A stretch of 64,000 nt of DNA from a virus, in the IMG/VR virus record IMGVR_UViG_3300025276_000022. One strand, written 5' to 3'. The notes under the pieces were generated by a model. That model ran no database searches. It was given only the letters and a program-made list of their open reading frames with translations, and had not been told where the DNA came from. Both the position numbers and the translations under genes were made by a program. This document shows positions 2,991 through 57,043 of this stretch, piece by piece. Numbering within the stretch: the first letter of the stretch is position 1; each line of letters begins with the position of its first letter.

Positions 2991-3431
2991 ATGATTTATT
3001 ATATTGCGACCATTAAAAACGGTCAGATACAAACATTGAAATTAGCAAGCGGAGATAACGCAGCTGAAGGAGTCCAAGAAAATGGGACAACTTTAGTACA
3101 CATTGATTTTCCCATTGACAATCGAATAGAATTTATCGAGACTAATTACTGGGACGGTAAGTGGTTACAAAGAGAACGTCCACCAAATGAACACTCTTCG
3201 TGGAATGGGTCATCGTGGGAATGGGATCTAGAATCCTTAATGCCCCAAGTAAGATCTGTCCGTAATGCTATGTTAGTGAGAAGTGACTGGACTCAAATGC
3301 CAGACTCTCCATTATCAGAAGATGACAAGTTAGACTGGCAAATATATCGTGAGGAACTAAGAAGTCTATCTTTTGTCCAAGATAATATATCTAATGTAAA
3401 AGATGTGGACTGGCCAGCAGAACCAAAATAA
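2991..3431 (+). CDS. Tail fibre assembly chaperone-like protein
   Basis: VRSVRNAML..SDWTQMPDSPLS...WQIYREELR...WPAEP motif. Confidence 0.75.
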   Translation: MIYYIATIKNGQIQTLKLASGDNAAEGVQENGTTLVHIDFPIDNRIEFIETNYWDGKWLQRERPPNEHSSWNGSSWEWDLESLMPQVRSVRNAMLVRSDWTQMPDSPLSEDDKLDWQIYREELRSLSFVQDNISNVKDVDWPAEPK

Positions 3432-3435
3432 TTAC

Positions 3436-3464
3436 TTGCTATTTTCCAGATGATAGTGTATAAT
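3436..3464 (+). promoter_or_regulatory. sigma70-like promoter
   Basis: TTGCTA-17 bp-TATAAT. Confidence 0.45.
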
Positions 3465-3512
3465 GATGTATGTTGCATACACTATAAATACATTTGAAGA
3501 AGCGGCTTAAAT

Positions 3513-3546
3513 ATGTGCATGAACTTCGGTTATGCACATTTTTTTT
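3513..3546 (+). terminator. Rho-independent terminator
   Basis: ATGTGCATGAAC-TTCG-GTTATGCACAT followed by a T run. Confidence 0.8.
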
Positions 3547-3548
3547 AT

Positions 3549-3556
3549 TATAAATA
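3549..3556 (+). promoter_or_regulatory. T4-type late promoter for the repeat protein gene
   Basis: TATAAATA about 50 nt before ATG 3607; gp55 is encoded in the window. A second copy lies at 3483-3490. Confidence 0.75.
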
Positions 3557-3606
3557 AACAGGTCATTAACAAATAAACTTTAACTTTAGCTAAAGAGAAA
3601 GCAAAC

Positions 3607-6600
3607 ATGTCAGCATCTAGTATACCTCTAAAAATTAAGAATAGCGATGGTGACCTACAGGAACTTACCCCAGCAGAAGAGATGTATCTCGCTGTAAAGG
3701 TAGGTGAAGCACTTGCAGAGGCCTCTGCTGGTGATATAGGCGATATCAGTCTCACCAATGGTGATAACATAGGTTCATTCGTAGATTCATTCTATAATGA
3801 AGCATCGGGCACACACCCTATGTCTAACATCACTGGTACTACAGTAACCACTACCTTGAAACAGGTTGGTGGCTCTGCGAGTGAATCTGGTAGCAATTTT
3901 GCCCGTCCTGTCGGTTATTATGCAGATAATGCAAATCCTGGCTTCTACGAAATGGTAGATGCAGATTTGGATAATCTAACAAATCGCGCACTTGTGAATC
4001 TTGAAACCTTAGAACTTCAAGGTGCATTCACACTTTCGTCCACATCGCCTGGCGGTGATTGGGCAAAACATATTGACACAGTATTCTCAGATACTCGTGG
4101 AGACGGAACTTCGATAGACTTCCATATTTGGAAGAAAACCGCACTTGCATCACCCCCAGCTGGTATTGTAACCACTCGGCCAGTTGCAACCGATTATGAT
4201 GGATCCTCAGCATTTAGCGGTCTAAAAGAAATGTCTGACGCAGAGATCAAGTACACTCTCGGTCAACGTGCTAAGTCACTTAGGTCGACAGCAGGAGCCA
4301 TTGGTTCTTATCAACTTCGTTCATCTGTACAAGGCGCTCCAACCTCAGCCGGAACTTGGGTTCCTCGTGGTACTGCCGCGAATACTCAACGTACTATTGT
4401 TGATGGAACTTATTCTCGCACTCGTGCTTCTGCATATGCTCGTACAAGAGTTTCTGCATACAGTCGTAATCGTGTATCAACTTATACTCGCAACAGCGTA
4501 GATACATTTGCACGTACGTTTGCTGGTGAATATACTGGTACATATTCTCGTGAATTTGCCGGTGAATATACACGTGGCTATGCAGGGGATTACACTAGAA
4601 CTCGTCCCTCAACATATACCCGAAATCGATTAACTGCGTTCACTGGTTACTTTGCTGGTACTTACAACCGTGCAAGAGTTTCAGTATACACACGCAATCG
4701 TGTAACACCATTTACCGGAACCTTCTCACGTACTCGTGCATCAGCATACACACGTGGTCGTGTTTCAACTTACGCAGGGACTTACGCAAGAACTCGTACT
4801 TCTGTTTACACAGCGGATTATACTCGTGCCCGTGTATCAACGTACACCGGAACTTACGCAGGAGTTTATTCTCGTAACCGTGTATCTGCATATGCTGGAA
4901 CTTACTCACGTACACGTTCTTCTGCTTATAGTCAACCATATACTCGTACACGTACTTCTGCATACTCTGCGGATTATACTCGTACACGTATAACTAACTA
5001 CACACGTGATCGTGTAACCAACTTTGCTGGCGTTTTCTCTCGTGCTCGTGTTTCTACATATACTCGTAATCGCGTTACAAACTTTGCTGGAAACTTCGTT
5101 GGTAACTATGCTCGTGGATTCGTAGGTAACTATTCTCGTGGATTCGTAGGTAACTACGCTCGTGGATATGCTGGCGACTTCGTCGGTAACTACGCTCGTG
5201 TTTCTACTCGTACATCTACTCGTACTCGTTACTCTGCATACGCTCGTACATCTACTCGTACTCGTTACTCTGCATATGCTCGTGACCGTGTCACTAACTT
5301 TGCTGGTGACTTCGTAGGTAACTACGCAACAACCTTTACTGGCAACTTTGCGGGCAACTATTCAAGAGACCGTGTAACAACCTTTACTGGTGACTTCGTA
5401 GGTAACTACGCAACAACCTTTACTGGCAACTTTGCGGGCAACTATTCAAGAGACCGTGTCACTAACTTTGCTGGCGATTTCGTAGGTAACTATGCAACAA
5501 CCTTTACTGGCAACTTCGCAGGTGATTACGCAAGAACTTCTACTAGAACTTCTACGCGTACACTAGACTATACTCGTTATTTGTACTATACTGGCAACTT
5601 TGCGGGCAACTATTCAAGAGACCGTGCATTCTCATATGTTGGAGATTACTCTAGAGCTCGTGCACAAGGAACTTCGTACACTGGTAACTATGGTCGTACT
5701 AGAACAGGTAGCTACACTGGTAACTATGCACGTACTCGTACTGCTTCTTACCTCGGTAACTATACTGGTAACTTCGCTGGTAACTATATCGGTAACTATA
5801 CACGAAACCTGATCTCAACTCGGACAAGTATTACCCTCGGAGGAACATCATATTATGCTCGATTCGTGTATAATCCATACATGGGAGAACTGGTTCCGGT
5901 TTTCTATACCCGTACTGCAGCGACCGCATATTACGCTGGTAACTTTGTTACTACCATGGCGTATACGACAGACTCCACACGTGCCTACCCGATGGCCTTT
6001 ACTAGGAATCGTGCCGCGAGCTATGTAGGCGACTATGCTCGTGTCCGTGCATTCTCTTATGTTGGAGACTACTCAAGAGCTCGTGCCCACACTCTTTACT
6101 ACACTGGTAACTATGGTCGTACTAGAACAGGTAGCTACACTGGTAACTATGCACGTACAAGTACTCGATCTAGCAATGTTCTCGCATATTACGGTAGAAC
6201 TGGATATTATGCTGGTGACTTTGTTGGTAACTATGGTCGTACTCGCGTAACTAACTATGTTGGTGATTTCACTAGAACTCGTGTAACTAACTATGCTGGA
6301 AATTTCGTTGGTAACTATGGTCGTACTCGTGTAACTAACTATGTTGGCGACTTTGCTAGAACTCGCGTAACTAACTATGCTGGTAACTTTGTCGGTAACT
6401 ATGGTCGTACTCGTGTAACTAACTATGTTGGTGACTTTAGTCGCAACCGTGTAACTAACTTCGCTGGTAACTTCGTCGGTAACTATGCTCGTGCATATGC
6501 TGGTGATTATGTTGGTAACTATGCTCGCGCATATGCTGGCGACTTCGCTGGTAACTATACTGGTGATTACGCTCGTACTTCTACAAGAACTCGTTACTCT

Positions 6601-44975: not shown

Positions 44976-44981
44976 ATAACG

Positions 44982-45009
44982 AAAGGGAGACTTCAATCTC
45001 CCTTTTTTT
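44982..45009 (+). terminator. Rho-independent terminator
   Basis: AAAGGGAGA-CTTCAA-TCTCCC followed by T7. Confidence 0.85.
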
Positions 45010-45735
45010 ATGTCCCAAGGAAAGTTAATGAATTACGACATTAATAAATTTGAAGAGTTCGGTTATGTTATAGTAACTGACTTTTTGTCGACTGTCGAAC
45101 ACCAACGTCTGAACGAAGAATGTGACACATATCGTAAGTACGCTGTTAGACTTTTTGATAATAGAAACGGTTGGATTATAAACTCTCCGAAAAATCCTTG
45201 TAAGTTGGACGGTGCGATGCAAAGAAGCTTGGTCTTCAGAGACTTGGGTTCTAATGATACGCTCAAGGAAGTTGCACGACAACTGCTAGATCAGAACGAC
45301 ATAGATACCTACATCTCTAAGTTTTTCCCTATGGTACCACTCGAAGGGTTTTCGGTGGGGTGGCACCAAGACAATCATTATATCAAGGCCGACCCTAGTC
45401 GTCTGATCAGTTGTGATGTATTTGTTAATGGTGCGGATAAGGAGAATGGTTGCCTACGTATTATACCTAACTCCCATACCGAAGAGTTTGACCATAACCA
45501 GAGATCACACCGTGTGTTTGACTGGATAGATATAGACGAAGAGTGTTCGACTATAGTAGACATAGAGTGTGACACTACATTCGCAGTTTTCTTTCACCCA
45601 AACCTAGTACATGGATGTTATAGAAATAGAAGTGATAGATATCGTTATAGTATTGCTTGGGAATATATTCATGAAGGATATGTTCCGAAAACACATAATG
45701 GCCATAATTCTCAGGATAGGTTACCCGTGATATGA
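45010..45735 (+). CDS. PhyH-family 2OG-Fe(II) dioxygenase (start may be 45028)
   Basis: FEEFGYVIV; GWHQD; ENGCLRIIPNSH; HG..N.SD..R. Confidence 0.85.
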   Translation: MSQGKLMNYDINKFEEFGYVIVTDFLSTVEHQRLNEECDTYRKYAVRLFDNRNGWIINSPKNPCKLDGAMQRSLVFRDLGSNDTLKEVARQLLDQNDIDTYISKFFPMVPLEGFSVGWHQDNHYIKADPSRLISCDVFVNGADKENGCLRIIPNSHTEEFDHNQRSHRVFDWIDIDEECSTIVDIECDTTFAVFFHPNLVHGCYRNRSDRYRYSIAWEYIHEGYVPKTHNGHNSQDRLPVI

Positions 45736-46532
45736 AAGCAATACAGATTGTAATAAAAGGTGACGAACGATCAGAAGAATATGCACATCTTTCTAGACGT
45801 TCTTTCCAACGTGCCATCGACGATGGTTACATCGACTCCATCGAAACCTTCGATGCGATCACCCCCCAATCAGAAGACTTCCAAGAACATGTAGATAAGT
45901 ACACGTGGGATAAGAGTCTGATGACTCTAGATACACTTTCCGGAAAGGGTAAGGATGATCATTCCCCTACAGAGAAAGCTGGGATGTGTTCTCACTGGGA
46001 ACTTATGCGTCAACAAGGAGAGTCAGACGAGAAGTTCTGGATCATGGAACACGACACTTGGTTGATAGAAGAACGTTATGAAGCGTTTAAACTTCTCTCG
46101 GAGTACTCTGAAAACACCCTCTATGCGAACATTGGACTATTCATGGGCATGTACTGCATGGACAAAGGGTTTGCTCACTGGAGTCAACACATGTTGACCA
46201 ACAACGATTTTCCTATAAACTGCGGCCCATACTGCGTTTTACAACGTCTTTTCAGAACATACACAACTGACTACCTTACTCGCCCAGAAATAAATTATTA
46301 CGGAATTCGCAATACCGCCTTGCATCCTTGGTCTGGATGTGATACAATAGGCGTAGGTCGTGACATTGGAGTTTACTTTAATTTATTTGACGAACATAAT
46401 ACTGGTATCCCAACACCAACAACTCAGTTGATTTCAAAACGTCTGAGTGTGACTCAAGACCACCATGGCTATAAAGATACGCATATACAAGAACCTTGGA
46501 CTAGACACAAATTCTTTAAGGTAATTGATTGA
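45732..46532 (+). CDS. Glycosyltransferase family 25-like protein
   Basis: FDAITP; EKAGMCSHWELM; IMEHD. Confidence 0.55.
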   Translation: MKAIQIVIKGDERSEEYAHLSRRSFQRAIDDGYIDSIETFDAITPQSEDFQEHVDKYTWDKSLMTLDTLSGKGKDDHSPTEKAGMCSHWELMRQQGESDEKFWIMEHDTWLIEERYEAFKLLSEYSENTLYANIGLFMGMYCMDKGFAHWSQHMLTNNDFPINCGPYCVLQRLFRTYTTDYLTRPEINYYGIRNTALHPWSGCDTIGVGRDIGVYFNLFDEHNTGIPTPTTQLISKRLSVTQDHHGYKDTHIQEPWTRHKFFKVID

Positions 46533-46540
46533 TAAGGGGG

Positions 46541-46569
46541 TTGACAGACAGCGCTAAATAATGTATAAT
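46541..46569 (+). promoter_or_regulatory. sigma70 promoter (DNA modification cassette)
   Basis: TTGACA-17 bp-TATAAT. Confidence 0.8.
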
Positions 46570-46595
46570 GTATATTAAATCGTGAAAGGTCTTAT

Positions 46596-47744
46596 ATGAA
46601 TTATCAACCATACAATCTCCAAGATGTCTATGACGCGGCATCTCAGAAAAAATTTAAAGTAGTGTCTACGTTCGCTGGCGGTGGTGGTTCATCCACTGGA
46701 TACCGACTGGCAGGTGCTGACATTCTCGCAGTTAACGAGTTCGTCGAAGAAGCACGGGTCACCTATAAAGAGAACTATCCGGACACTCCAATTCTTCCCG
46801 ACGATATCAAACAACTATCTGGTAAAGATTTCCTAGAGCTCACTGGTCTCAAGAAAGGTGAACTGGATATTCTTGACGGATCTCCTCCTTGCTCTGCATT
46901 TTCTGTTGCAGGCAAACTCTCTCATTCATCTGATGGTAAACACTCTGATGGTTGGGGACAGACCAAGTCCTATAGTGACGGTAAGATTGTCGAGAACATC
47001 GAAGACTTGTTCTTTGAGTTCTTACGTGTAGCTAAAGAAATCTCCCCCAAGGTAATCATCGCAGAGAATGTTAAAGGTCTGACCATTGGTGAGGCAAAAG
47101 AATACTACAACCGCATCCTTAATGAATTCGAGAATATTGGATATGAGGTTGTCTCTGAGGTTATGGATTCTCGTTACTACGGTGTCTCTCAGACTCGTAC
47201 TCGTGTAATCTTCATTGCCGTAAGACAAGATGTTGCCGACGAGGTTGGGTTAAACTTCCTAACTATGAATCACTTGTTCCCTGCACCAAGCCGCACAGCG
47301 ATCCCTCTCAAGGATGTTCTGGTTGGTCTGGAGTATGATAACGAAGAAGTCGAGTACCTAACAGAGAAGTTCGAAAGAACTGCGTACTGGAAAGATACTG
47401 GATCTCTGATGCCAACCTTTCCTGATAAAGTTTTGACTGGGGGTGACTATCATCCGAAAGGTCACCACTTCAATCTCAAGAGAGTATCGCTCGAAGTCCC
47501 TGCCCCTACTCTTACTGCGATGGGTAGCGGAGATACTACTGCTGGTGCATTTCATTGGAGTGATCCAAGAAAGTTGACACTAGGTGAATTAAAGCGTATA
47601 ATGTCACTACCCGATGACTTTAAACTAACGGGCAAGTGGAACCAGAAGGCAGAACGTATTGGTCGTATGGTACCACCATTAATGATGAAACAGATTGCTG
47701 AGTCAGTCTATGATAACGTATTGAAGGTATATAATGAAAGATAG
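46596..47744 (+). CDS. DNA cytosine-C5 methyltransferase-family enzyme, probable carboxymethyltransferase
   Basis: FAGGGG (I), GSPPCSAFS (IV), ENV (VI), Q.R.R (VIII); motif X reads GRMV rather than GN[AS]V. Confidence 0.85.
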   Translation: MNYQPYNLQDVYDAASQKKFKVVSTFAGGGGSSTGYRLAGADILAVNEFVEEARVTYKENYPDTPILPDDIKQLSGKDFLELTGLKKGELDILDGSPPCSAFSVAGKLSHSSDGKHSDGWGQTKSYSDGKIVENIEDLFFEFLRVAKEISPKVIIAENVKGLTIGEAKEYYNRILNEFENIGYEVVSEVMDSRYYGVSQTRTRVIFIAVRQDVADEVGLNFLTMNHLFPAPSRTAIPLKDVLVGLEYDNEEVEYLTEKFERTAYWKDTGSLMPTFPDKVLTGGDYHPKGHHFNLKRVSLEVPAPTLTAMGSGDTTAGAFHWSDPRKLTLGELKRIMSLPDDFKLTGKWNQKAERIGRMVPPLMMKQIAESVYDNVLKVYNER

Positions 47745-48453
47745 AGAAAGCACAACCCATAGAGATTTTACATTCGGTCACCGCGAAGAAGGTTTCGATA
47801 ATCATATCGATGCTTCGATTCGCCACTACTCCTCACTACACGATGACGTAGTAAACTTATCTCGTTACTTTGTAGAGAACGATACTAAGGTTGTAGACAT
47901 TGGATGTAGTACAGGTAAGACCATCGAAGCCATGGTCAAACAGAATCATGAAACTGCGCCCAATGCACATTACTGTGGTGTTGAGTATGCCGAAGTGTTT
48001 CAAGCAGAGATGACTGATCGAGAAAAGAGACTTAATGGTGAAGGTCATCATATCTGTTTTCAAAACAAGAACATCATCCACCACAACTTTTCAAACTGTT
48101 CTCTTGTAACTTCTATCTTCACGTTGCAGTTCATGCAACCGCTATGGAGAAAGAAGGTAATGCAAAACATCTATGATGGTCTTAACGAAGGCGGTGCGTT
48201 CATCTTTGCCGAGAAGACTTATTCAGAGAACTCACGTATCCAAGATATGATAACCTCTACGTTCTATGAGTACAAAGCAGAGCACTTCACCTATGAAGAT
48301 ATTATGGAGAAAGAGAAGACTCTCCGAACTATGTTGAAACCAATGACTTGGAACGAGCTTGTCGCTCTACTAACCTCAGTTGGTTTTGATTCGACAAAGA
48401 TTCAACCGTTCTGGATGAATCATTTGTTCGTCGGTGCTATTGCAATAAAGTAA
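47734..48453 (+). CDS. cmoA: CmoA-like carboxy-SAM synthase / SAM-dependent enzyme
   Basis: FDNHIDASIRHY; DIGCSTG; FTLQF; IYDGLNEGGAFIFAEK all parallel E. coli CmoA. Confidence 0.75.
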   Translation: MKDRESTTHRDFTFGHREEGFDNHIDASIRHYSSLHDDVVNLSRYFVENDTKVVDIGCSTGKTIEAMVKQNHETAPNAHYCGVEYAEVFQAEMTDREKRLNGEGHHICFQNKNIIHHNFSNCSLVTSIFTLQFMQPLWRKKVMQNIYDGLNEGGAFIFAEKTYSENSRIQDMITSTFYEYKAEHFTYEDIMEKEKTLRTMLKPMTWNELVALLTSVGFDSTKIQPFWMNHLFVGAIAIK

Positions 48454-48472
48454 ATTATTTAGCTATAAGCCC

Positions 48473-48501
48473 TTGACTTTTGTTTCGAAAAGAGGTATAA
48501 T
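48473..48501 (+). promoter_or_regulatory. sigma70-like promoter
   Basis: TTGACT-17 bp-TATAAT. Confidence 0.65.
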
Positions 48502-48539
48502 AGGTACTTAGTTAATCGAGTTGAGAGAGAAAATATATT

Positions 48540-50027
48540 ATGATTGCGACGAACTCTACCCACATACATAAAATTGTTTGCGAAGAACTTGTGTCTAAAT
48601 CTCATGAGGCGTACACCTACAAGTGGACTATCAAAGACCCTGATAGCAATAAAACCTATTTTTATGGTGGTCGCAGACATAACGAGTATCAGCCTAATGC
48701 GTATATGCATTCAAGTAAGAATGCTAAATTTCTTGACATTCTTAGTAAGAGTAAGGATGTAACATATGAGGTCACTTCTGTAGGTACTCATGAAGAGGCA
48801 GCGCTCGAAGAGGCTCGAATGTTAACAGACTCTAAAGCTAAGAGTTCAGAATATTGGTTTAACTCTACCAATGGTTTAGGTGGTAAAGGTGGTAAAGGTG
48901 TTGGTAAAACATTATTTTTAGACACTCTCACTAGTGAGATGAAACGTCTTATGAACGGTGAAGAAAACCTTAAACCAGACCAAGTCGGGCCTATGGGTAT
49001 CACCAAGGGCAACTACTCAAAAGCAGATTTAAGAGATATTGTTGTTATCCGACAACAATTCGTACAAACGCGTTCATACCAATTTAATTCCTCTCACGTA
49101 TCTACTTTGGCGGAAGGGTTTGATAAGAAATCTGACCCAAATGAATGGGAACCTATTGTCGTTCTTCTGGATGCTAAGGTAATAGATAACAAAGTAGTAT
49201 ATTGTGACAAAGGTGGCGTAGTTGTTATTTCAGGTAATCACCGTTCGCGTGGTTTAGTACGTTCTACTAATGGAGTATCTTTGAATGCCTATAACATTCC
49301 CCATAAGTCTTGGGAAAAATTAGACGACATAGACATGAGAACGTTATCTAATAGATTTAACCCAAACCCTGAAAAACCTGTACTCAAGCAAGACCCTGAA
49401 GCGGCCGCAGCATGGGTCTTGGGTTGGTGTGAAAATAGAGGTCTAACAAAGATTGCTGATGATGGAGTTACAAAGATACCTGATATTAAACACTCCCTCG
49501 TTAAAAAGGAACTTATCGAAGTTAATAACTACACTCAGGGCGATTTCAATAGTGTTATAAAAGAGTGCCAGAAAAAAATCGAGAAACAATTTATAGCTGA
49601 TGGAGATAATATGCTAGATTGGGCAGACGCGGCTATGTCTCTAGACCCTGTCTTAGCTGGTACCCTTGACCATTATAAAACGAGGTTAATAGACGAAGGG
49701 CAACATACCGATGTTTATAAGATTTCAGGTAAGGTTCTTAACTGGGGTAAACTCTCAGATAGGATTTATGATAAAAAACAATGCGAGATTAAGACCCATC
49801 ATAACTTATTGGTATTAGTGTACCATGCGACTAAGGAAGATATGAAGGAGTGTAAAAAGGGTCTATATAAAAAATGTAAAGTATTCTCAGATGATTTTAT
49901 TGCGGGTAAACCAGACCGTAAAATTGAGTATATGCATCTGCCTATCACCAAGTCATACCTTCAATATAAAAGCCCGTTGAAGCTTGACTATGATATTGTT
50001 TGCGATAAACTAGTAGAAGGTTTGTAA
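48540..50027 (+). CDS. Hypothetical protein: degenerate GIY-YIG/Seg-like N-terminus plus ParB/Srx-like domain
   Basis: AYTYKWT...YFYGGRRH...YMHSS and WFN; EPIVV...VISGNHRSRG. Confidence 0.5.
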   Translation: MIATNSTHIHKIVCEELVSKSHEAYTYKWTIKDPDSNKTYFYGGRRHNEYQPNAYMHSSKNAKFLDILSKSKDVTYEVTSVGTHEEAALEEARMLTDSKAKSSEYWFNSTNGLGGKGGKGVGKTLFLDTLTSEMKRLMNGEENLKPDQVGPMGITKGNYSKADLRDIVVIRQQFVQTRSYQFNSSHVSTLAEGFDKKSDPNEWEPIVVLLDAKVIDNKVVYCDKGGVVVISGNHRSRGLVRSTNGVSLNAYNIPHKSWEKLDDIDMRTLSNRFNPNPEKPVLKQDPEAAAAWVLGWCENRGLTKIADDGVTKIPDIKHSLVKKELIEVNNYTQGDFNSVIKECQKKIEKQFIADGDNMLDWADAAMSLDPVLAGTLDHYKTRLIDEGQHTDVYKISGKVLNWGKLSDRIYDKKQCEIKTHHNLLVLVYHATKEDMKECKKGLYKKCKVFSDDFIAGKPDRKIEYMHLPITKSYLQYKSPLKLDYDIVCDKLVEGL

Positions 50028-50894
50028 TTGATACGAGACTTACTTATCGACCACATAACAGGAAAGGTGCCGCACGATAAGGTTGCGGTACTTCTTTCTG
50101 GTGGTGTTGACAGTATCAGTGTGGCAATCGCTGCACAGGATGCTGGGAAGACTGTACACGCGTATAGTTTCCATCTCGAAGGACAACCATCTTATGACCA
50201 TGCGAAGGCAAAAGAAGTCGCAGAAATCATGGGGTGGGAGTTCACCACTATTATCGTCCCTACTGATAACCTAGTTGAAGACTGGCACCGACTAGTCAAA
50301 CATGGTTGTCGCAAGAAATCCCACTACGAAGCCGCAGTGTTTCCCTTCCTCTATTGTTATGAAAACATGTTAGAAGAATACTGTATTACTGGATGGGGTG
50401 CAGACGCCTACTTCGGTTGCAGTAAGAAAGCAATGATACGATACTCTTCTTTTAAAAAGAAGCGCAACTACGTCAAGTACTGTAAAGAGAACAACCAGAC
50501 GAGAGTTAACTGGAATGAGTTCCGTAATGCCTATCTAGACGGAGACTGTGCAGGACTACAGCAACACACCAATCTTGCAGAGAAGCATGGTAAGGTGCAT
50601 GTCACTCCATATCTAGACCCACGCGTACGCGAGTACTTTATGAAGTTTTCGTGGGAAGAACTCAACAAACCAAAACAAAAGAATATAATCCGTGAAGAAT
50701 TTAATATTGAAGATCTGTTTGGGAAAGTCAAGCCCCATATCAATCTTCAGTTGGGTAGTGGTATTGATACACTGTTCGAGACTCTTCTGGATAATCCGGA
50801 GGTAAACTATAAAAGAAGACAGCGAGTGATGGACATGTGCCGCGACTGGTACACCGATCATACTACTTCTAATCTTTCTGATTTCATGTCTTGA
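50028..50894 (+). CDS. Asparagine-synthetase-like ATP-dependent amide ligase (no glutaminase domain)
   Basis: LLSGGVDS PP-loop; TGWGADAYFG; PYLD; K..IR. Confidence 0.75.
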   Translation: MIRDLLIDHITGKVPHDKVAVLLSGGVDSISVAIAAQDAGKTVHAYSFHLEGQPSYDHAKAKEVAEIMGWEFTTIIVPTDNLVEDWHRLVKHGCRKKSHYEAAVFPFLYCYENMLEEYCITGWGADAYFGCSKKAMIRYSSFKKKRNYVKYCKENNQTRVNWNEFRNAYLDGDCAGLQQHTNLAEKHGKVHVTPYLDPRVREYFMKFSWEELNKPKQKNIIREEFNIEDLFGKVKPHINLQLGSGIDTLFETLLDNPEVNYKRRQRVMDMCRDWYTDHTTSNLSDFMS

Positions 50895-50919
50895 CAGACT
50901 CTCCTAATCAAGGTATAAT
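50891..50919 (+). promoter_or_regulatory. sigma70 promoter, probably leaderless (gp43)
   Basis: TTGACA-17 bp-TATAAT with ATG 6 nt later. Confidence 0.75.
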
Positions 50920-50925
50920 AGCCCC

Positions 50926-53403
50926 ATGACAAAATTTTACTCTTCTGCTATCCGTATGGGTAAGCACATTCTATATCGCGGTTACGAGAACGGCCTACAG
51001 GTCAAGAAACGTATTCCATTCCAACCTAAACTATATGTCACCAGTCAGAACGAATCTGATTGGAAGACTCTGGACGGTCTCCCCGTTGCCGAGTGCGTCT
51101 TGGACTCTATGTCTGATGCGACTGACTTCCTCAAGAAGTATGCTGATGTGCATAACTTCAAGGTATATGGTAACAACAATTACGTTGCCCAGTATATCGG
51201 TGAACAATTTCCCAATAAGATAAACTTCGACCGCGATCTAATCCGGACTGCCAATATCGATATCGAGGTTTATAGTAAGGAAGGTTTCCCTGAGCCAGGC
51301 AAGGCTGCATATCCAGTGACCTCTATTACAATGCGCAAGAATGATGGCACCTACTGGGTGTGGGCATGTGGAGACTATGTCACTACTCGTGAAGAAGTCC
51401 TCTATATCAAATGCGACAACGAGATGGATCTTCTCCGCAAGTTTATTGAGCACTGGTCTCACTACGCTCCTGACATTCTGACAGGTTGGAACAGTCGGTT
51501 CTTCGATATCCCATACATCGTTAACCGTTGCGTTAACCTGTTCGGTGATGACACGTTATTGAAACGACTATCTCCTTGGGGTGCGGTACGTGAACGTAAT
51601 GTAACTATTCAAGGTCGCGCCAATCAGGAATACGTGATTGAAGGTGTCGAGCACCTAGATTACATTGAAATCTTTAAGAAGTTCACACTCAACACTCTGG
51701 GTCAACAAGAATCCTATCGTCTAGACCATATCGCCCACGTTGTCTTGGGTGAACGCAAGTTGTCCTATGAGGAGCACGGAAACCTCCACGCTCTTTATGA
51801 AAACGACTTCCAAAAGTTTATTGACTATAACATCAAAGACGTGGAGTTGGTTCACAAGATCGATGAGAAACTCGACTTGATTACTCTGGTACTCACCATG
51901 GCATATCGTGGTGGTGTTAACTATGGTGACACACTTGGTACTACTAACATCTGGGACAGCATCATCTACCGTATGCTGAACAAGATGAAGGTCGTAGTTC
52001 CTTCCAAATCTGAGAAGCCTAAGACTTCATATCCGGGCGGTTATGTTAAAGAACCTCAAGTTGGGTCACACGACTGGGTTACCTCTTTTGATTTGGCGTC
52101 TCTATATCCCAACATCATTGTTCAATATAACATGTCACCTGAGACTGTGATGGACGGTTTCCATAATGGTGTAAGCGTCGATAAGTTTCTTGATGGATCA
52201 TACAAGGTATCTGAGTCTAACGTCTCTATTGCGCCAACTGGAGTCGCTTTCTCACATGATAGAGAGGGGGTCATTCCTACGGTGATTAAACAATACTACA
52301 CGGAACGTAGTCTTATCAAGAAGGAGATGTTGAAACTCCAGCAGGAATACCAGAAGAATCCGACTAATGCTTTGGCCTATAGGATATCGTCACTGGACAA
52401 CCAACAGATGGCTATCAAGATTCTTATGAACTCCCTCTATGGTGCGCTCGGTAATCGATACTTCCGTTACTTTGATCAACGTGTTGCAGAGTCAATTACT
52501 CTTGCAGGGCAACTTGCAATCAAATGGGCAGAGAGAGCAGCCAATAATGAGATGCAGAAACTTCTTAAAACAGATGAAGATTATGTTGTAGCAATTGACA
52601 CGGATTCTCTATACATTCGTATGTCTGCCCTTGTGGATAAGTTTTCTCCTAAAGACCCTGTAAAGTTTCTTGACAAGATATGTTCCGAGCACTTCGAGAA
52701 AGTTCTGGAAAATTCTTATAATGAGATGGCAGAAGTTACTGGTGCGTACGAGAATCGTATGGTGATGGAACGTGAGGTAATCGCAGACCGTGGTATCTGG
52801 ATGGCGAAGAAACGATATATCCTTAATGTGCATAACTCTGAGGGTGTGCAGTACGCAGAACCTAAACTCAAGATGATGGGTATCGAGGCAATCAAGTCAT
52901 CGACTCCTTCGGTTGTCCGTGACAAGATGAAAGAAATCTTCCGCGTCATTGTAGAAGGTACCGAGGAAACCACCCAGAGATTTATCCGTGAGTTCAAGAC
53001 TCTGTTTAATACATTACCACCCGAAGATGTTTCGTGGCCCCGTGGTATCTCTAATCTCGATAAGTGGAAAGACCGAGAGACTATTTTCAAGAAGGGTACT
53101 CCCATACATGTTCGCGGTGCGTTATGTTATAACAATCTAATCAAGGAGAATAATCTTGGTAATAGATATGAACTGGTCAAGCCAGGCGAGAAGGTAAAGT
53201 TCGTCTATCTAAAAGTACCGAATCGTCTGGGTGAAAACGTTGTGGCATATCCTCAACATCTCCCCGAAGAACTGGGACTGGGTAAGTATATCGATTACGA
53301 CTTAATGTTCAGTAAGACTTTCATTGCCCCTCTCGAACCAATTCTTGATGCAGTCGGTTGGGCTTCTGAACCTCGTGCCACATTGGAGGACTTCTTCGGA
53401 TGA
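50926..53403 (+). CDS. gp43: Family B DNA polymerase
   Basis: DIEV; FDIPY; SFDLASLYP; [13 protein letters not shown]; DTDS; KKRY; C-terminal LEDFF clamp-binding motif. Confidence 0.97.
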
Positions 53404-53816
53404 TCACAGACTTTTGCGTTATATGCGGAACGAAAGAAAATCTTCATAACCATCATATTGTTTGTAAGAAGAGTAAACTGAAACCAATATCTGGCGACAT
53501 TGATCATTATACAAACCTCATAACTCTCTGTGGAGAACATCATGGGTGGATTCATGGTATGAAACCTAATAGATTCAATGACAATAACCGTTTAAGAACG
53601 GCTGGAATAAAGAAAGCACAGAAAGAAGGAAAGTATCTTGGACGTGTTCCAACTGCGCAAAGAAAGTCTAAAGAGATTCAGAGATTGCATTCAGAAGGAA
53701 TGAAACCGGCATTAATTGCAAAGGAACTCAACATAGGAGTCGCGAGTGTCTACCGATATAGAGAAAAAGAAAAAAAACAAAAGCAAATGACAGATCAAGC
53801 GCAATTCTTCGGTTGA
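53400..53816 (+). mobile_element. Free-standing HNH homing endonuclease-like gene with C-terminal HTH
   Basis: CVICG..HNHHI...NLITLCGEHHGWIH; GKYLGR...IAKELNIGVASVYRY resolvase-type HTH. Confidence 0.7.
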
Positions 53817-54790: not shown

Positions 54791-55729
54791 ATGAATAGAG
54801 TATTAGTAACAGGTGCAGCAGGATTTATCGGTTCACAATTATCGGATCGATTACAGAAACGTGGATTGACAGTGAAAGGTATTGATAATTTCAATAACCA
54901 TCTATACACTCCTGAATTAAAAGTAGATCGTATGAAACACTTCGATCTAGATATCTGGGGATGTGATCTAAAGGATGAGATAAAGCTCGAAGCGTTATTG
55001 AGAGACTTCCGTCCAGACACTATTATTCATCTTGCCGCAATGGCAGGCGTTCGTGATTCTATGGGAAAAGAGAAGTCGTACCACGCAAATAACATAGATG
55101 CTACACAGAACCTTATTGATATCTGTAAACAACATCTACCAGAGACTCGCATTGTATATGCGTCAACGTCTTGTGTATATGCTGGATCCCCGACTCCGTG
55201 GACAGAAGGTGAAGAGACTGGTAAACAATTAAACGCATATGGTTATACCAAGTGGGCGAATGAATGTCAGATGCAATCGTCTGGTCTAAACACAACTGGT
55301 CTACGTTTCTTCACAGTATATGGCCCTTGGGGTCGTCCTGATATGGCTTTGTTTGACTTTACTAAAAATATACTTGACGGAAAGGAAATAACCGTGTATA
55401 ATTACGGTAAGATGAAGAGAGACTTCACTTTCGTAGAAGATATCCTAGACGGTATTGAAGTTGTCTTAGACAATGACGATCTATCGGGAGAGATATTTAA
55501 TATCGGACGTGGTGAACAAGTCGAGTTGCTAGACTTCATTGGTGAGATCGAGAAACAAACTGGGAAGAAAGCAATTAAGAATCTTGCTCCCCAACATCCT
55601 GCGGATACTTTAGAGACTTGGTCTAATACTGCTAAGTTACAAGCACTTGGTTATGACCCGAAGGTAAGTATCGCAGAGGGTGTTGAAAGATTTTACGAAT
55701 GGTTTAAAACTTATAATGGAATCGAATAA
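54791..55729 (+). CDS. NAD-dependent epimerase (UDP-glucuronate 4-epimerase-like)
   Basis: VTGAAGFIG; HLAAMAGVR; Y..TK; LRFFTVYGPWGRPDMA. Confidence 0.9.
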   Translation: MNRVLVTGAAGFIGSQLSDRLQKRGLTVKGIDNFNNHLYTPELKVDRMKHFDLDIWGCDLKDEIKLEALLRDFRPDTIIHLAAMAGVRDSMGKEKSYHANNIDATQNLIDICKQHLPETRIVYASTSCVYAGSPTPWTEGEETGKQLNAYGYTKWANECQMQSSGLNTTGLRFFTVYGPWGRPDMALFDFTKNILDGKEITVYNYGKMKRDFTFVEDILDGIEVVLDNDDLSGEIFNIGRGEQVELLDFIGEIEKQTGKKAIKNLAPQHPADTLETWSNTAKLQALGYDPKVSIAEGVERFYEWFKTYNGIE

Positions 55730-56064
55730 TGAGCAAGAGTAAATTAAGAAAAGCATATGAAGCACGGCTCGGTGATGCAGATGGCGAGTTGAGACTATAT
55801 GACGCTAAAGGTAATGAGATTTATACCGAAACCTCTGACAGTTATTGGGTGAAACGAGAATACGACGCTAAAGGTAATGAGATTTATTGGGAAACCTCTG
55901 ACGGTTATTGGTGTAAACAAGAATACGACGCTAAAGGTAATCAGATTTATTTTGAAACCTCTATGGATGGTGTGGCTTTAGACAAACTAGCTTGTAGCGA
56001 TAAAGTATTTATCGACGAGCAAACTGGTAAGAAGTTTAAAATGGTGGAGGTGAGTGGTGACTAG
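55729..56064 (+). CDS. Small protein with tandem 21-aa YDAKGN repeats
   Basis: 63-bp repeats starting at 55798, 55861 and 55924. Confidence 0.7.
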   Translation: MSKSKLRKAYEARLGDADGELRLYDAKGNEIYTETSDSYWVKREYDAKGNEIYWETSDGYWCKQEYDAKGNQIYFETSMDGVALDKLACSDKVFIDEQTGKKFKMVEVSGD

Positions 56065-57043
56065 AGCAACAGCAGACGATGTTAACACACGATTTCGAAT
56101 AGGAATCGTTGGACATGGATTTGTTGGCCAGGCAGTCGAGTATGCGTTTATGCATCCGCTTGTCGACTTCAACTACTATGACCCCAAATATGAAACCACC
56201 CTTGATACTCTGACAGACGCACCAGCAGATATTCATCCTAAGTGTTTCTTTATATGTGCGCCCACACCATCCGCAGATGACGGTTCGGTAGATTCTTCTA
56301 TCGTGGAAGCTTCGGTGCTTAAATGTCTTAACTATACTGATGCTCTTGTCGTAGTTAAATCTACAATCACCCCCGAATCTATTGACCGTCTTTACTCTGG
56401 TATGAGTAGAGAACAGATCGATCGTTTCGTTTATAACCCTGAGTTCTTGACAGAGAAGAATGCTAAGGCAGACTTCGTCGGTGCTAAGTTCCACGTCATT
56501 GGTGGTATGCCAGTAGCCGCACGAGAACTCATTGACGTGTATGAGATCTTTGGTGCATGTGAGTCTAACGACTATCACCGTATGACCGCATACGAAGCAT
56601 CCTTTGTTAAATATACCATTAACTCATACCTGTCTACTAAGATCACATTCTTCAATCAGTTATATGATCTGGTCAACCTGTATGGTTGTAACTACAATAC
56701 TATTGTTCGTGCAGTAGGTAAAGACGATAGAGTTGGTGTAGGTCACACCCGTGTGCCTGGCTTTGATGGTAAACGAGGATTCGGTGGTGCATGTCTACCC
56801 AAAGATACAAGAGCATTCTTAGACTTTTCGACACATGAGTTTGCTGATGGAACTACAACTAGTTTCGATTTGTTAGAGAAAGTACTTGACATCAATAGTA
56901 CTTATCGTGTACAATACACCCTTGATGAAAGAGAAAAAGTTAATAACATTACATTCGTAAATTTTGGAGGCAAAAATGTCAATAATGGACAAACTAAAGA
57001 AGAACTCGAAGATCAAAGAGACAGCGATCCTATCGACGAGTAA
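56054..57043 (+). CDS. UDP-glucose/GDP-mannose dehydrogenase-like protein (short form)
   Basis: GIVGHGFVG; APTP; KST; YNPEFL; GFGGACLPKD. Confidence 0.85.
   Translation: MVTRATADDVNTRFRIGIVGHGFVGQAVEYAFMHPLVDFNYYDPKYETTLDTLTDAPADIHPKCFFICAPTPSADDGSVDSSIVEASVLKCLNYTDALVVVKSTITPESIDRLYSGMSREQIDRFVYNPEFLTEKNAKADFVGAKFHVIGGMPVAARELIDVYEIFGACESNDYHRMTAYEASFVKYTINSYLSTKITFFNQLYDLVNLYGCNYNTIVRAVGKDDRVGVGHTRVPGFDGKRGFGGACLPKDTRAFLDFSTHEFADGTTTSFDLLEKVLDINSTYRVQYTLDEREKVNNITFVNFGGKNVNNGQTKEELEDQRDSDPIDE

Follow-up and report, generated by a model that had tools for sequence, protein, structure and literature searches.

A probable cytosine carboxymethylation and amidation cassette with a variable ParB/sulfiredoxin-like gene slot in a T4-like virus

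Introduction

Three enzymes of Synechococcus phage S-B43, CmoA, CmoX and CmoY, build a hypermodified cytosine (Yang et al., Nat Commun 2025, published December 2025; PMC12783734), and here we analyse a cassette encoding homologues of all three in a 64,000-nucleotide stretch of viral DNA, IMG/VR record IMGVR_UViG_3300025276_000022 (this whole stretch is called the window below). The cassette lies at 46.5-50.9 kb, just upstream of the gene for the DNA polymerase gp43, and holds a fourth gene that we refer to as GPB. In the S-B43 pathway, SpCmoA converts S-adenosylmethionine (SAM) and prephenate into carboxy-SAM (Cx-SAM) with a kcat of 2.33 s-1, and SpCmoX (PDB 8YF3) moves the carboxymethyl group onto the C5 position of cytosines at GC sites (PMC12783734). 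Wild-type SpCmoX takes Cx-SAM only and not SAM, its R350 contacts the carboxylate and the R350N variant is dead, while SpCmoY uses ATP to ligate glycine to the resulting 5-carboxymethylcytosine (PMC12783734). The virion DNA of S-B43 accordingly holds 5-glycylcarboxymethyl-deoxycytidine (5gcxmdC), which is estimated to make up 10% of the C bases and to occupy 75% of the GC sites, and carboxymethylated DNA is resistant to HhaI (PMC12783734).

The same study counted 5,615 candidate CmoX genes from sources including IMG/VR, described several ligase clusters with differing pocket residues whose amines were not identified, and reported genes with a ParBc domain (PF02195) beside CmoX in 1660 contigs, with a function stated to be unknown (PMC12783734, Fig. 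8c). IMG/VR contigs hold CmoX genes that are 90-99% identical to that of the window, so the clade to which the window belongs has very probably been counted among the 5,615 already.

Results

Homology to the S-B43 enzymes

We consider it very likely that the region at 46.5-50.9 kb is an early-expressed, four-gene cytosine hypermodification cassette orthologous to CmoA-CmoX-CmoY of S-B43. Its genes are as follows.

46596..47744, + strand: cmoX, 382 amino acids (aa), homologue of the DNA cytosine-C5 carboxymethyltransferase (PF00145, E 1.8e-52; 64% identity to SpCmoX)
47734..48453, + strand: cmoA, 239 aa, homologue of the carboxy-SAM synthase (52% identity to the active SpCmoA)
48540..50027, + strand: GPB, putative accessory gene of 495 aa between cmoA and cmoY (AlphaFold model and fold matches)
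50028..50894, + strand: cmoY, 288 aa, TTG start, homologue of the ATP-dependent amide ligase (PF00733, E 2.3e-16; 45% identity to SpCmoY)

A first-pass annotation of this DNA, made from the letters without database searches, had left GPB out of its list of cassette genes. It had placed an asparagine-synthetase-like ligase after the CmoA-like gene and just upstream of gp43; the ligase and its proximity to gp43 stand (the cmoY stop lies 31 nt upstream of gp43), but the 495-aa open reading frame (ORF) intervenes between ligase and cmoA.

The product of cmoX is a C5-methyltransferase (C5-MTase) by profile score (PF00145, 179 bits with a cut-off of 22; TIGR00675, 150.6 bits with a cut-off of 100.65), carries the motifs SPPC (aa 96-99), ENV (at 157) and QTRTR (QxRxR, at 199), and matches SpCmoX with E 8e-179 (phmmer to PDB 8YF3, E 4e-154). 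Its SPPC aligns to the SPPC of SpCmoX (S95-C98, with the catalytic Cys), and the ERIGRMVPPLMM block pairs residue by residue with ERVGRMVPPLMM of SpCmoX (8YF3), such that Arg357 within IGRMVPP corresponds to SpCmoX R350. In a HMMER alignment with M.HaeIII, the same Arg357 stands opposite the Asn of IGNAVP. The first-pass annotation had read motif X as GRMV instead of GN[AS]V at nt 47661-47672 and had reported an overlap with the CmoA-like gene; motif and coordinates proved exact (residues 356-359), and the two ORFs indeed share 11 nt at the 3' end of cmoX. In the homologous loci that we fetched (numbered with L), motif X reads R[IVL]GRMVPP in 22 of 22 CmoA-linked MTase genes. As a control for this Arg, the TET/JBP-linked MTase of locus L010, which is 40% identical to CmoX, reads RIGLMVAP, with Leu instead of Arg.

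The cmoA product aligns with SpCmoA over 231 aa (E 1e-79), matches the NCBIfam models TIGR00740 (E 9e-30) and PRK15451 (E 2.6e-18), and finds the E. coli and H. influenzae CmoA structures (4GEK/1IM8) with E 1e-16. For cmoY, the Asn_synthase profile PF00733 scores 60.8 bits (cut-off 21), and a PP-loop SGGVDS is present; the protein spans positions 237-370 of the 517-position AsnB model, the glutaminase domain being absent. Its TTG start corresponds to the ATG with which the same N-terminus begins in L039, and its pairwise comparison with SpCmoY gives E 2e-77. In the published ligase network, the SpCmoY (glycine-pocket) cluster was defined at an edge of 1e-56 (PMC12783734), and since the pairwise E is stronger than this edge, we infer glycine as the amine joined by cmoY.

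By analogy with S-B43, CmoA would convert SAM and prephenate into carboxy-SAM, and CmoX would attack C6 of cytosine through Cys99 and place the carboxymethyl group on C5 in double-stranded phage DNA. CmoY would then adenylate the carboxylate of the 5-carboxymethylcytosine so formed and join it to an amine. The phage DNA modified in this way would resist restriction enzymes. The fourth gene, a predicted fusion of GIY-YIG-like and ParB/sulfiredoxin (Srx) parts in a swappable slot, is not needed for the chemistry. For the phage of the window, the enzyme activities, the amine, the target sequence and the anti-restriction role are all inferred. The succession of carboxy-SAM, carboxymethylcytosine and amidation had been proposed in the first-pass annotation and draws support from the homology to the S-B43 enzymes, for which the pathway is proven; the CmoX/CmoA/CmoY trio that it mentioned from a cyanophage is real, being that of S-B43 (PMC12783734), and the type of system is not new. 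Where it had spoken of an unknown amine, amidation holds by homology, and the amine in S-B43 is glycine.

Evidence weighed against the carboxymethylation pathway

Several observations weigh against this assignment. The cmoA product falls below the equivalog cut-offs of both NCBIfam models (TIGR00740, 104.1 bits with a cut-off of 193.3; PRK15451, 66.4 bits with a cut-off of 285); these models were built on bacterial CmoA of the tRNA pathway, and the active SpCmoA is itself ~29% identical to E. coli CmoA. Arg199 of E. coli CmoA, which forms a salt bridge to the carboxylate of the cofactor (PMC3663124), is absent from cmoA, where a Glu is aligned with it and an Arg follows at +4; the active SpCmoA likewise has no Arg199. 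Across five aligned sequences K198 and L202 do not vary, R199 is replaced by Glu in all four phage proteins, and the position of E. coli E203 is Arg in the phage proteins (KEKTLR, KEKELR, KEKQLR, KEVELR). The same holds for 28 of 28 phage CmoA loci, SpCmoA included, with Glu at 199 and at +4 either Arg (25 loci) or Lys (3 loci). SpCmoA is active, ten times faster than the E. coli enzyme (PMC12783734). Because this active enzyme has the same arrangement, the absence of R199 is no argument against cmoA function, and the natural reading of the alignments is that the carboxylate-binding Arg of phage CmoA has moved by one helical turn. The first-pass annotation had worried that R199 aligns to KEKTLR, with the Arg shifted or absent; it is indeed shifted, four residues downstream, and harmlessly so. 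Such a relocation, common to all the phage CmoAs examined, would account for the low scores of phage cmoA genes against bacterial CmoA models. Further, CmoX is just 42% identical to SpCmoX in its variable region (aa 216-322) as compared to 74% in the N-terminal part, so GC-site specificity is not assured and could differ; if the target is GC, the window has 2,352 GpC sites, which hold 17.9% of all its cytosines. Finally, cmoY is just 45% identical to SpCmoY, which leaves the amine less than certain.

The low identity of cmoY, together with the ligase clusters of differing pocket residues and unidentified amines (PMC12783734), would accommodate the same pathway with an amine other than glycine (another amino acid, ammonia or a polyamine), such that the final base differs from that of S-B43. 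We regard this as unlikely, since the E of 2e-77 beats the 1e-56 edge of the SpCmoY cluster, and glutamine-derived ammonia is itself improbable for a ligase with no glutaminase domain. Far less credible is an ordinary 5-methylcytosine enzyme accompanied by a CmoA-like gene that serves only tRNA modification or SAM depletion. The classical role of CmoA in the synthesis of cmo5U in tRNA and the equivalog scores of cmoA would agree with such an explanation, but SpCmoX, 64% identical and with the same IGRMVPP, takes Cx-SAM and not SAM, the motif X Arg accompanies CmoA in 22 of 22 loci, cmoX and cmoA overlap and the cassette comes and goes as a block. Moreover, the annotated ORFs from 38.8 to 59.7 kb include none that resembles CmoB.

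Limits and promoters of the cassette

The extent of the cassette is delimited by Phage C48C1 (Kyanoviridae, 156 kb), the closest phage record by protein, whose polymerase is 73% identical to gp43 of the window. In C48C1 the homologue of the 266-aa gene that precedes cmoX ends 32 nt before the polymerase gene, and cmoX, cmoA, the slot gene and cmoY are all absent. On this basis 46596-50894 forms a single insertion/deletion unit with a conserved gene on either side. The flanking genes and the predicted promoters are listed here.

45732..46532, + strand: conserved 266-aa gene, left flank, outside the cassette (C48C1 homologue 84% identical)
46541..46569, + strand: predicted sigma-70-type early promoter before cmoX (TTGACA-17-TATAAT, 12/12; consensus match only)
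47574..47602, + strand: putative sigma-70-type promoter within cmoX, upstream of cmoA (12/12 consensus match)
48473..48501, + strand: predicted early promoter at the head of the variable slot (11/12 consensus match)
50891..50919, + strand: predicted sigma-70-type promoter of gp43, right cassette edge (12/12 consensus match)
50926..53403, + strand: gp43 family B DNA polymerase, right flank (PF00136/PF03104; phrog_262 at 1020.9 bits; 73% identity to C48C1)

Three perfect 12/12 matches within 6.3 kb are far above chance, and position 46541, at which the first-pass annotation had begun its span, is the -35 box of the cmoX promoter. These matches fit early expression of the cassette genes.

The slot gene GPB

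GPB is predicted to consist of a GIY-YIG-like domain (~23-110), a ParB/sulfiredoxin domain (~146-280), a winged-helix-like domain (~283-351) and an alpha/beta C-terminal domain (360-495), as judged from an AlphaFold (AF2) model with a predicted local distance difference test (pLDDT) score of 90.4. Searches of Pfam, PHROGs, NCBIfam and PDB sequences gave no significant family. With hmmscan to E 10, the best Pfam signal was ddrB-ParB (PF18763, E 0.071, 13.7 bits with a cut-off of 27.6) and ParBc (PF02195) was not matched, and tblastn against phage records returned no match. Exhaustive searching with HMMER yielded 67 representative clusters at E <= 0.001.

Foldseek of the model against PDB gave nothing at E <= 0.001; ParB chains nonetheless ranked at the top, several with a probability of 0.96-1.0, and the best matches in BFVD are uncharacterised proteins of cyanophages alongside entries for ParB/Srx proteins or GIY-YIG homing endonucleases. 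Residues ~146-280 match PadC (Z 7.7, 101 aa, 2.9 Å), KorB (Z 7.3), pNOB8 ParB-N (Z 6.8) and sulfiredoxin (Z 6.8), and a conserved GNHR motif (GxxR-type) lies at aa 232-235; this part likely belongs to the ParB N-terminal/sulfiredoxin fold, the Z values being middling. Residues 23-110 superimpose on the GIY-YIG catalytic domain of I-TevI over 80 of 92 residues (Z 6.3, 2.9 Å), and residues 283-351 resemble small winged-helix/helix-turn-helix (HTH) domains.

In an alignment of 35 GPB family sequences, Y42, Y55, E91, L95, A100, N108, R178 and N274 are invariant, G44, S58, S59, G82, G112, G114, Q176, G232 and P254 are nearly so, and Y27 is conserved in 86%. The N-terminal pattern AYxY...KxYxG...E...N fits GIY-YIG, and Pfam SegE_GIY-YIG matches two of the 35 members (E 0.003). 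The family lacks an invariant counterpart of the catalytic Arg that is canonical in GIY-YIG enzymes, position 46 being R, K or H throughout, and nuclease activity is therefore uncertain. A literature search for proteins with GIY-YIG and ParB parts in phage hypermodification found no paper.

By tblastn over the fetched loci, GPB homologues occur in three settings. The order orf266-cmoX-cmoA-GPB-cmoY-pol, as in the window, is found in L003/L004, L008/L009 and L014, and the order pol-GPB-cmoY-cmoX-cmoA in L006 and L015-L021, while L010 and L013 hold cassettes in which a C5-MTase is combined with a TET/JBP dioxygenase. At L010, the C5-MTase gene (3078-4286, + strand) is followed by the TET/JBP gene (4261-5208), and the GPB homologue (~30% identical) lies two genes downstream. 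At L008, an FkbM-type methyltransferase gene (PF05050; 964-1647, + strand) and a 274-aa gene precede the homologue of the 266-aa gene; this could represent an extra tailoring step, or be unrelated.

GPB occupies a variable slot behind a conserved predicted promoter

The closest relatives, gathered through CmoY at 89-96% identity, differ from the window and from each other in what lies between cmoA and cmoY.

L039 (CmoX 98%, CmoA 99%): slot empty, cmoY starting one base after the cmoA stop
L026, L027, L029, L030, L042: slot with a 330-aa gene (L027: CmoX 99%, CmoA 100%)
L031-L036, L041: slot with a 296-aa and a 286-aa gene (L031:4250-5997, + strand); the 296-aa gene is phrog_5931
L038:4634-6004, + strand: slot with a 456-aa gene (DGGHR-like motif IDGGHRKR, weak C-terminal HNH signal)

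Pfam and PHROGs gave no name for the alternative slot genes of L027, L030, L031 and L038, and hhalign of single alternative slot sequences with the GPB profile gave signals too weak to be of help. A profile-profile comparison (hhalign) of the 330-aa family with the ParB/Srx-plus-helical part of GPB gave E 4.2e-5 and a probability of 70%, and the 330-aa protein has the fold of a ParB-N/Srx domain (pNOB8 ParB, Z 9.2 over 156 residues; PadC, Z 8.7). Two families of slot occupants, GPB and the 330-aa family, are thus ParB/Srx-like, in agreement with the published remark on ParBc-domain genes beside many CmoX genes. Judging by its motifs, the 456-aa gene of L038 would have a ParB-like-plus-nuclease layout analogous to that of GPB.

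The promoter after the cmoA stop is common to the window, L027, L030, L038 and L004 and is missing in the slot-empty L039. As the promoter is kept while the genes vary, the slot can be described as a conserved early promoter with a variable gene module. GPB itself diverges much faster than its neighbours, being 37-53% identical where CmoX is 85-88% identical. Neither S-B43 nor S-CRM01 has a GPB-like gene, and because S-B43 modifies its DNA without one, GPB is not required for the chemistry.

Selfish element or working accessory

These features can be accounted for in two ways. GPB may be a selfish, free-standing homing endonuclease or a shuffled 'hyperplastic' gene that takes no part in DNA modification, an explanation to which we assign a substantial chance, somewhat short of even. 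Near-identical cassettes differ in slot content (empty in L039, a 330-aa gene in L027, 296-aa plus 286-aa or 456-aa genes in others), the gene evolves faster than its neighbours, and its N-terminal domain is of the I-TevI/Seg-type fold. Promoter-mediated gene shuffling is known in T4-type phages, and a conserved promoter beside variable ORFs fits it. That S-B43 modifies 75% of GC sites with no such gene points the same way. Conversely, 35 homologues, with identities as low as 21%, retain a four-domain architecture of ~460-525 aa, and homologues adjoin CmoY in two gene orders and also lie within MTase+TET/JBP cassettes. In L008 the GPB gene overlaps cmoY by 23 nt, and among the alternative occupants the 330-aa protein is also ParB/Srx-like and the 456-aa protein has a DGGHR-like motif. 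ParBc-domain genes also stand beside CmoX in 1660 cases (PMC12783734), and taken with the ParB-like occupants they favour a functional tie to a ParB-like partner over random landing.

Alternatively, GPB may be a working accessory, a nucleoside triphosphate-gated DNA clamp or nuclease that either cleaves the unmodified cytosine DNA of host or rival phages and leaves the modified DNA of its own phage intact, or guides the modifying enzymes along DNA; we hold this to be possible, and only a little less likely than the selfish gene. It would account for the linkage of GPB to two chemically different C5-cytosine cassettes, Cmo and TET, and for the conservation of the GIY-YIG-like Tyr, Tyr, Glu and Asn along with the QxR and GNH motifs of the ParB/Srx part. 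A precedent is offered by the GIY-YIG enzyme T4 endonuclease II, which cleaves DNA with cytosine and spares DNA with hydroxymethylcytosine, and the fold matches of GPB include the modification-specific GIY-YIG restriction enzyme PD-T4-3 (9u75; Z 4.9). This role is made less probable by the catalytic Arg that varies between R, K and H at position 46, by a slot that can be empty, by the lack of the gene in S-B43 and S-CRM01, and by fold Z-scores of 6-8, which are middling.

Genome setting

The region at 38.8-59.7 kb, in which every gene is on the + strand, is a T4-type replication module. It begins with a gp46-like SbcC, the gp45 clamp, the gp44/62 clamp loader, regA, an unnamed gene, Hsp20 and a PhyH-type dioxygenase, continues from PhyH (45010-45735) through the 266-aa gene, the four cassette genes and gp43, and proceeds with a small HNH/HTH ORF, a primase-like gene, a nucleotide-sugar epimerase, a UDP-glucose dehydrogenase, UvsX and a DnaB-like helicase. 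Megablast of window positions 45000-51000 against the phage record collection gave no match, and the polymerases of typical Synechococcus myophages are ~46% identical to gp43 of the window. The source virus is a T4-like (Kyanoviridae-like) and probably uncultured marine phage.

Two neighbouring genes were rejected as cassette members: the 266-aa gene, which adjoins the polymerase gene in the cassette-less C48C1, and the PhyH dioxygenase gene, which is absent from the locus in L004 and C48C1 and constitutes a separate insertion. The 266-aa gene has 144 metagenomic homologues at E <= 0.001 and is widespread in contigs of marine T4-like phages; it has no Pfam match, and one JGI name and one protein-atlas cluster hint, as a lead only, at glycosyltransferase family 25 (GT25). 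The PhyH-type 2-oxoglutarate-Fe(II) dioxygenase gene (+ strand; PF05721, E 3.8e-26) is flanked by hsp20 and the 266-aa gene, and directly 3' of hsp20, at 44981-45006, a hairpin with a 10-bp stem followed by a T-run resembles a terminator on the + strand.

Downstream of the cassette, a 138-aa ORF (53400-53816, + strand) overlaps the end of gp43 and shows weak signals for HNH (N-terminal) and for a resolvase-type HTH (C-terminal). At this position C48C1 has a gene for a DPPY-type (N6-adenine) DNA methyltransferase after the polymerase; the different genes suggest a second variable slot there, which in the window holds a homing-endonuclease-like gene. Further on, a 111-aa ORF (55729-56064, + strand) without similarity to the neighbouring genes stands between the nucleotide-sugar epimerase and UDP-glucose dehydrogenase genes, which are adjacent in relatives of the window, with no such ORF between them. 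A suspected frameshift in UDP-glucose dehydrogenase was ruled out, the gene being intact (56054-57043, 77% identical to L003) and the ORF separate.

Discussion

By itself, the main cassette is confirmatory and adds one more T4-like marine phage to a system for which > 5,000 candidate CmoX genes have been counted (PMC12783734). Our analysis goes a little beyond that study in pointing to the shifted Arg of phage CmoA, in delimiting the cassette exactly, through C48C1 and metagenomic relatives, and in describing an internal slot, made up of a promoter and a ParB-like gene, that is swapped or emptied among cassettes otherwise 98-100% identical. The occurrence of the GPB family with MTase+TET cassettes as well hints at a general partner of post-replicative cytosine modification. 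More specifically, GPB might be a modification-aware nuclease or clamp, a 'restriction-like' partner of Cmo and TET cassettes that cuts unmodified cytosine DNA and to which the carboxymethyl-amide DNA of the phage would be immune. We offer this as a speculation with little likelihood as yet; if true, the fast turnover of the gene between relatives would reflect an arms race and not selfish homing.

Comparison with known systems

The window and S-B43 share the three enzymes (64%, 52% and 45% identity), the SPPC Cys, the motif X Arg, the Glu/Arg arrangement of CmoA and a ligase without glutaminase, and both are T4-like viruses of the cyanophage family with the cassette in the replication gene region. 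They differ in gene order, which is cmoA-cmoY-cmoX in S-B43 and cmoX-cmoA-[slot gene]-cmoY in the window, in the inserted 495-aa GIY-YIG/ParB gene of the window, and in the variable region of CmoX, where identity drops to 42%; moreover, the activities were shown biochemically for S-B43 and are predicted by homology for the window. The engineered M.MpeI N374K likewise owes its use of carboxy-SAM to a basic residue at the motif X Asn (PMC12783734). There the residue is an engineered Lys and the target CG, whereas CmoX of the window has a natural Arg and SpCmoX targets GC (PMC12783734); M.MpeI aligns to CmoX of the window over aa 91-314 only (E 2.7e-11). E. coli CmoA (PDB 4GEK, 4IWN) has the same class I MTase fold, and its Y39, D62, G64 and S66 and the FTLQF block are kept in cmoA of the window, but identity is 24%, Arg199 is replaced by Glu with an Arg one helical turn later at the E203 position, and the cmoB partner of the E. 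coli gene has no counterpart among the ORFs annotated at 38.8-59.7 kb of the window.

For GPB, the nearest known proteins at the N-terminus are the Seg proteins, I-TevI and T4 endonuclease II, with which it shares an I-TevI-like predicted fold, the Y...YxG...E...N pattern and a slot between conserved genes. GPB differs from these in being twice as long, in its fusion to ParB/Srx and further domains, in having no invariant catalytic Arg and in belonging to a family tied to cytosine-modification cassettes. Like the ParBc-domain neighbours of CmoX reported in the S-B43 study, GPB is probably of ParB/Srx fold and is encoded within the cassette; unlike them, it has no PF02195 match, so that the Pfam-based count of that study may not include it, and it adds a GIY-YIG-like and two more domains.

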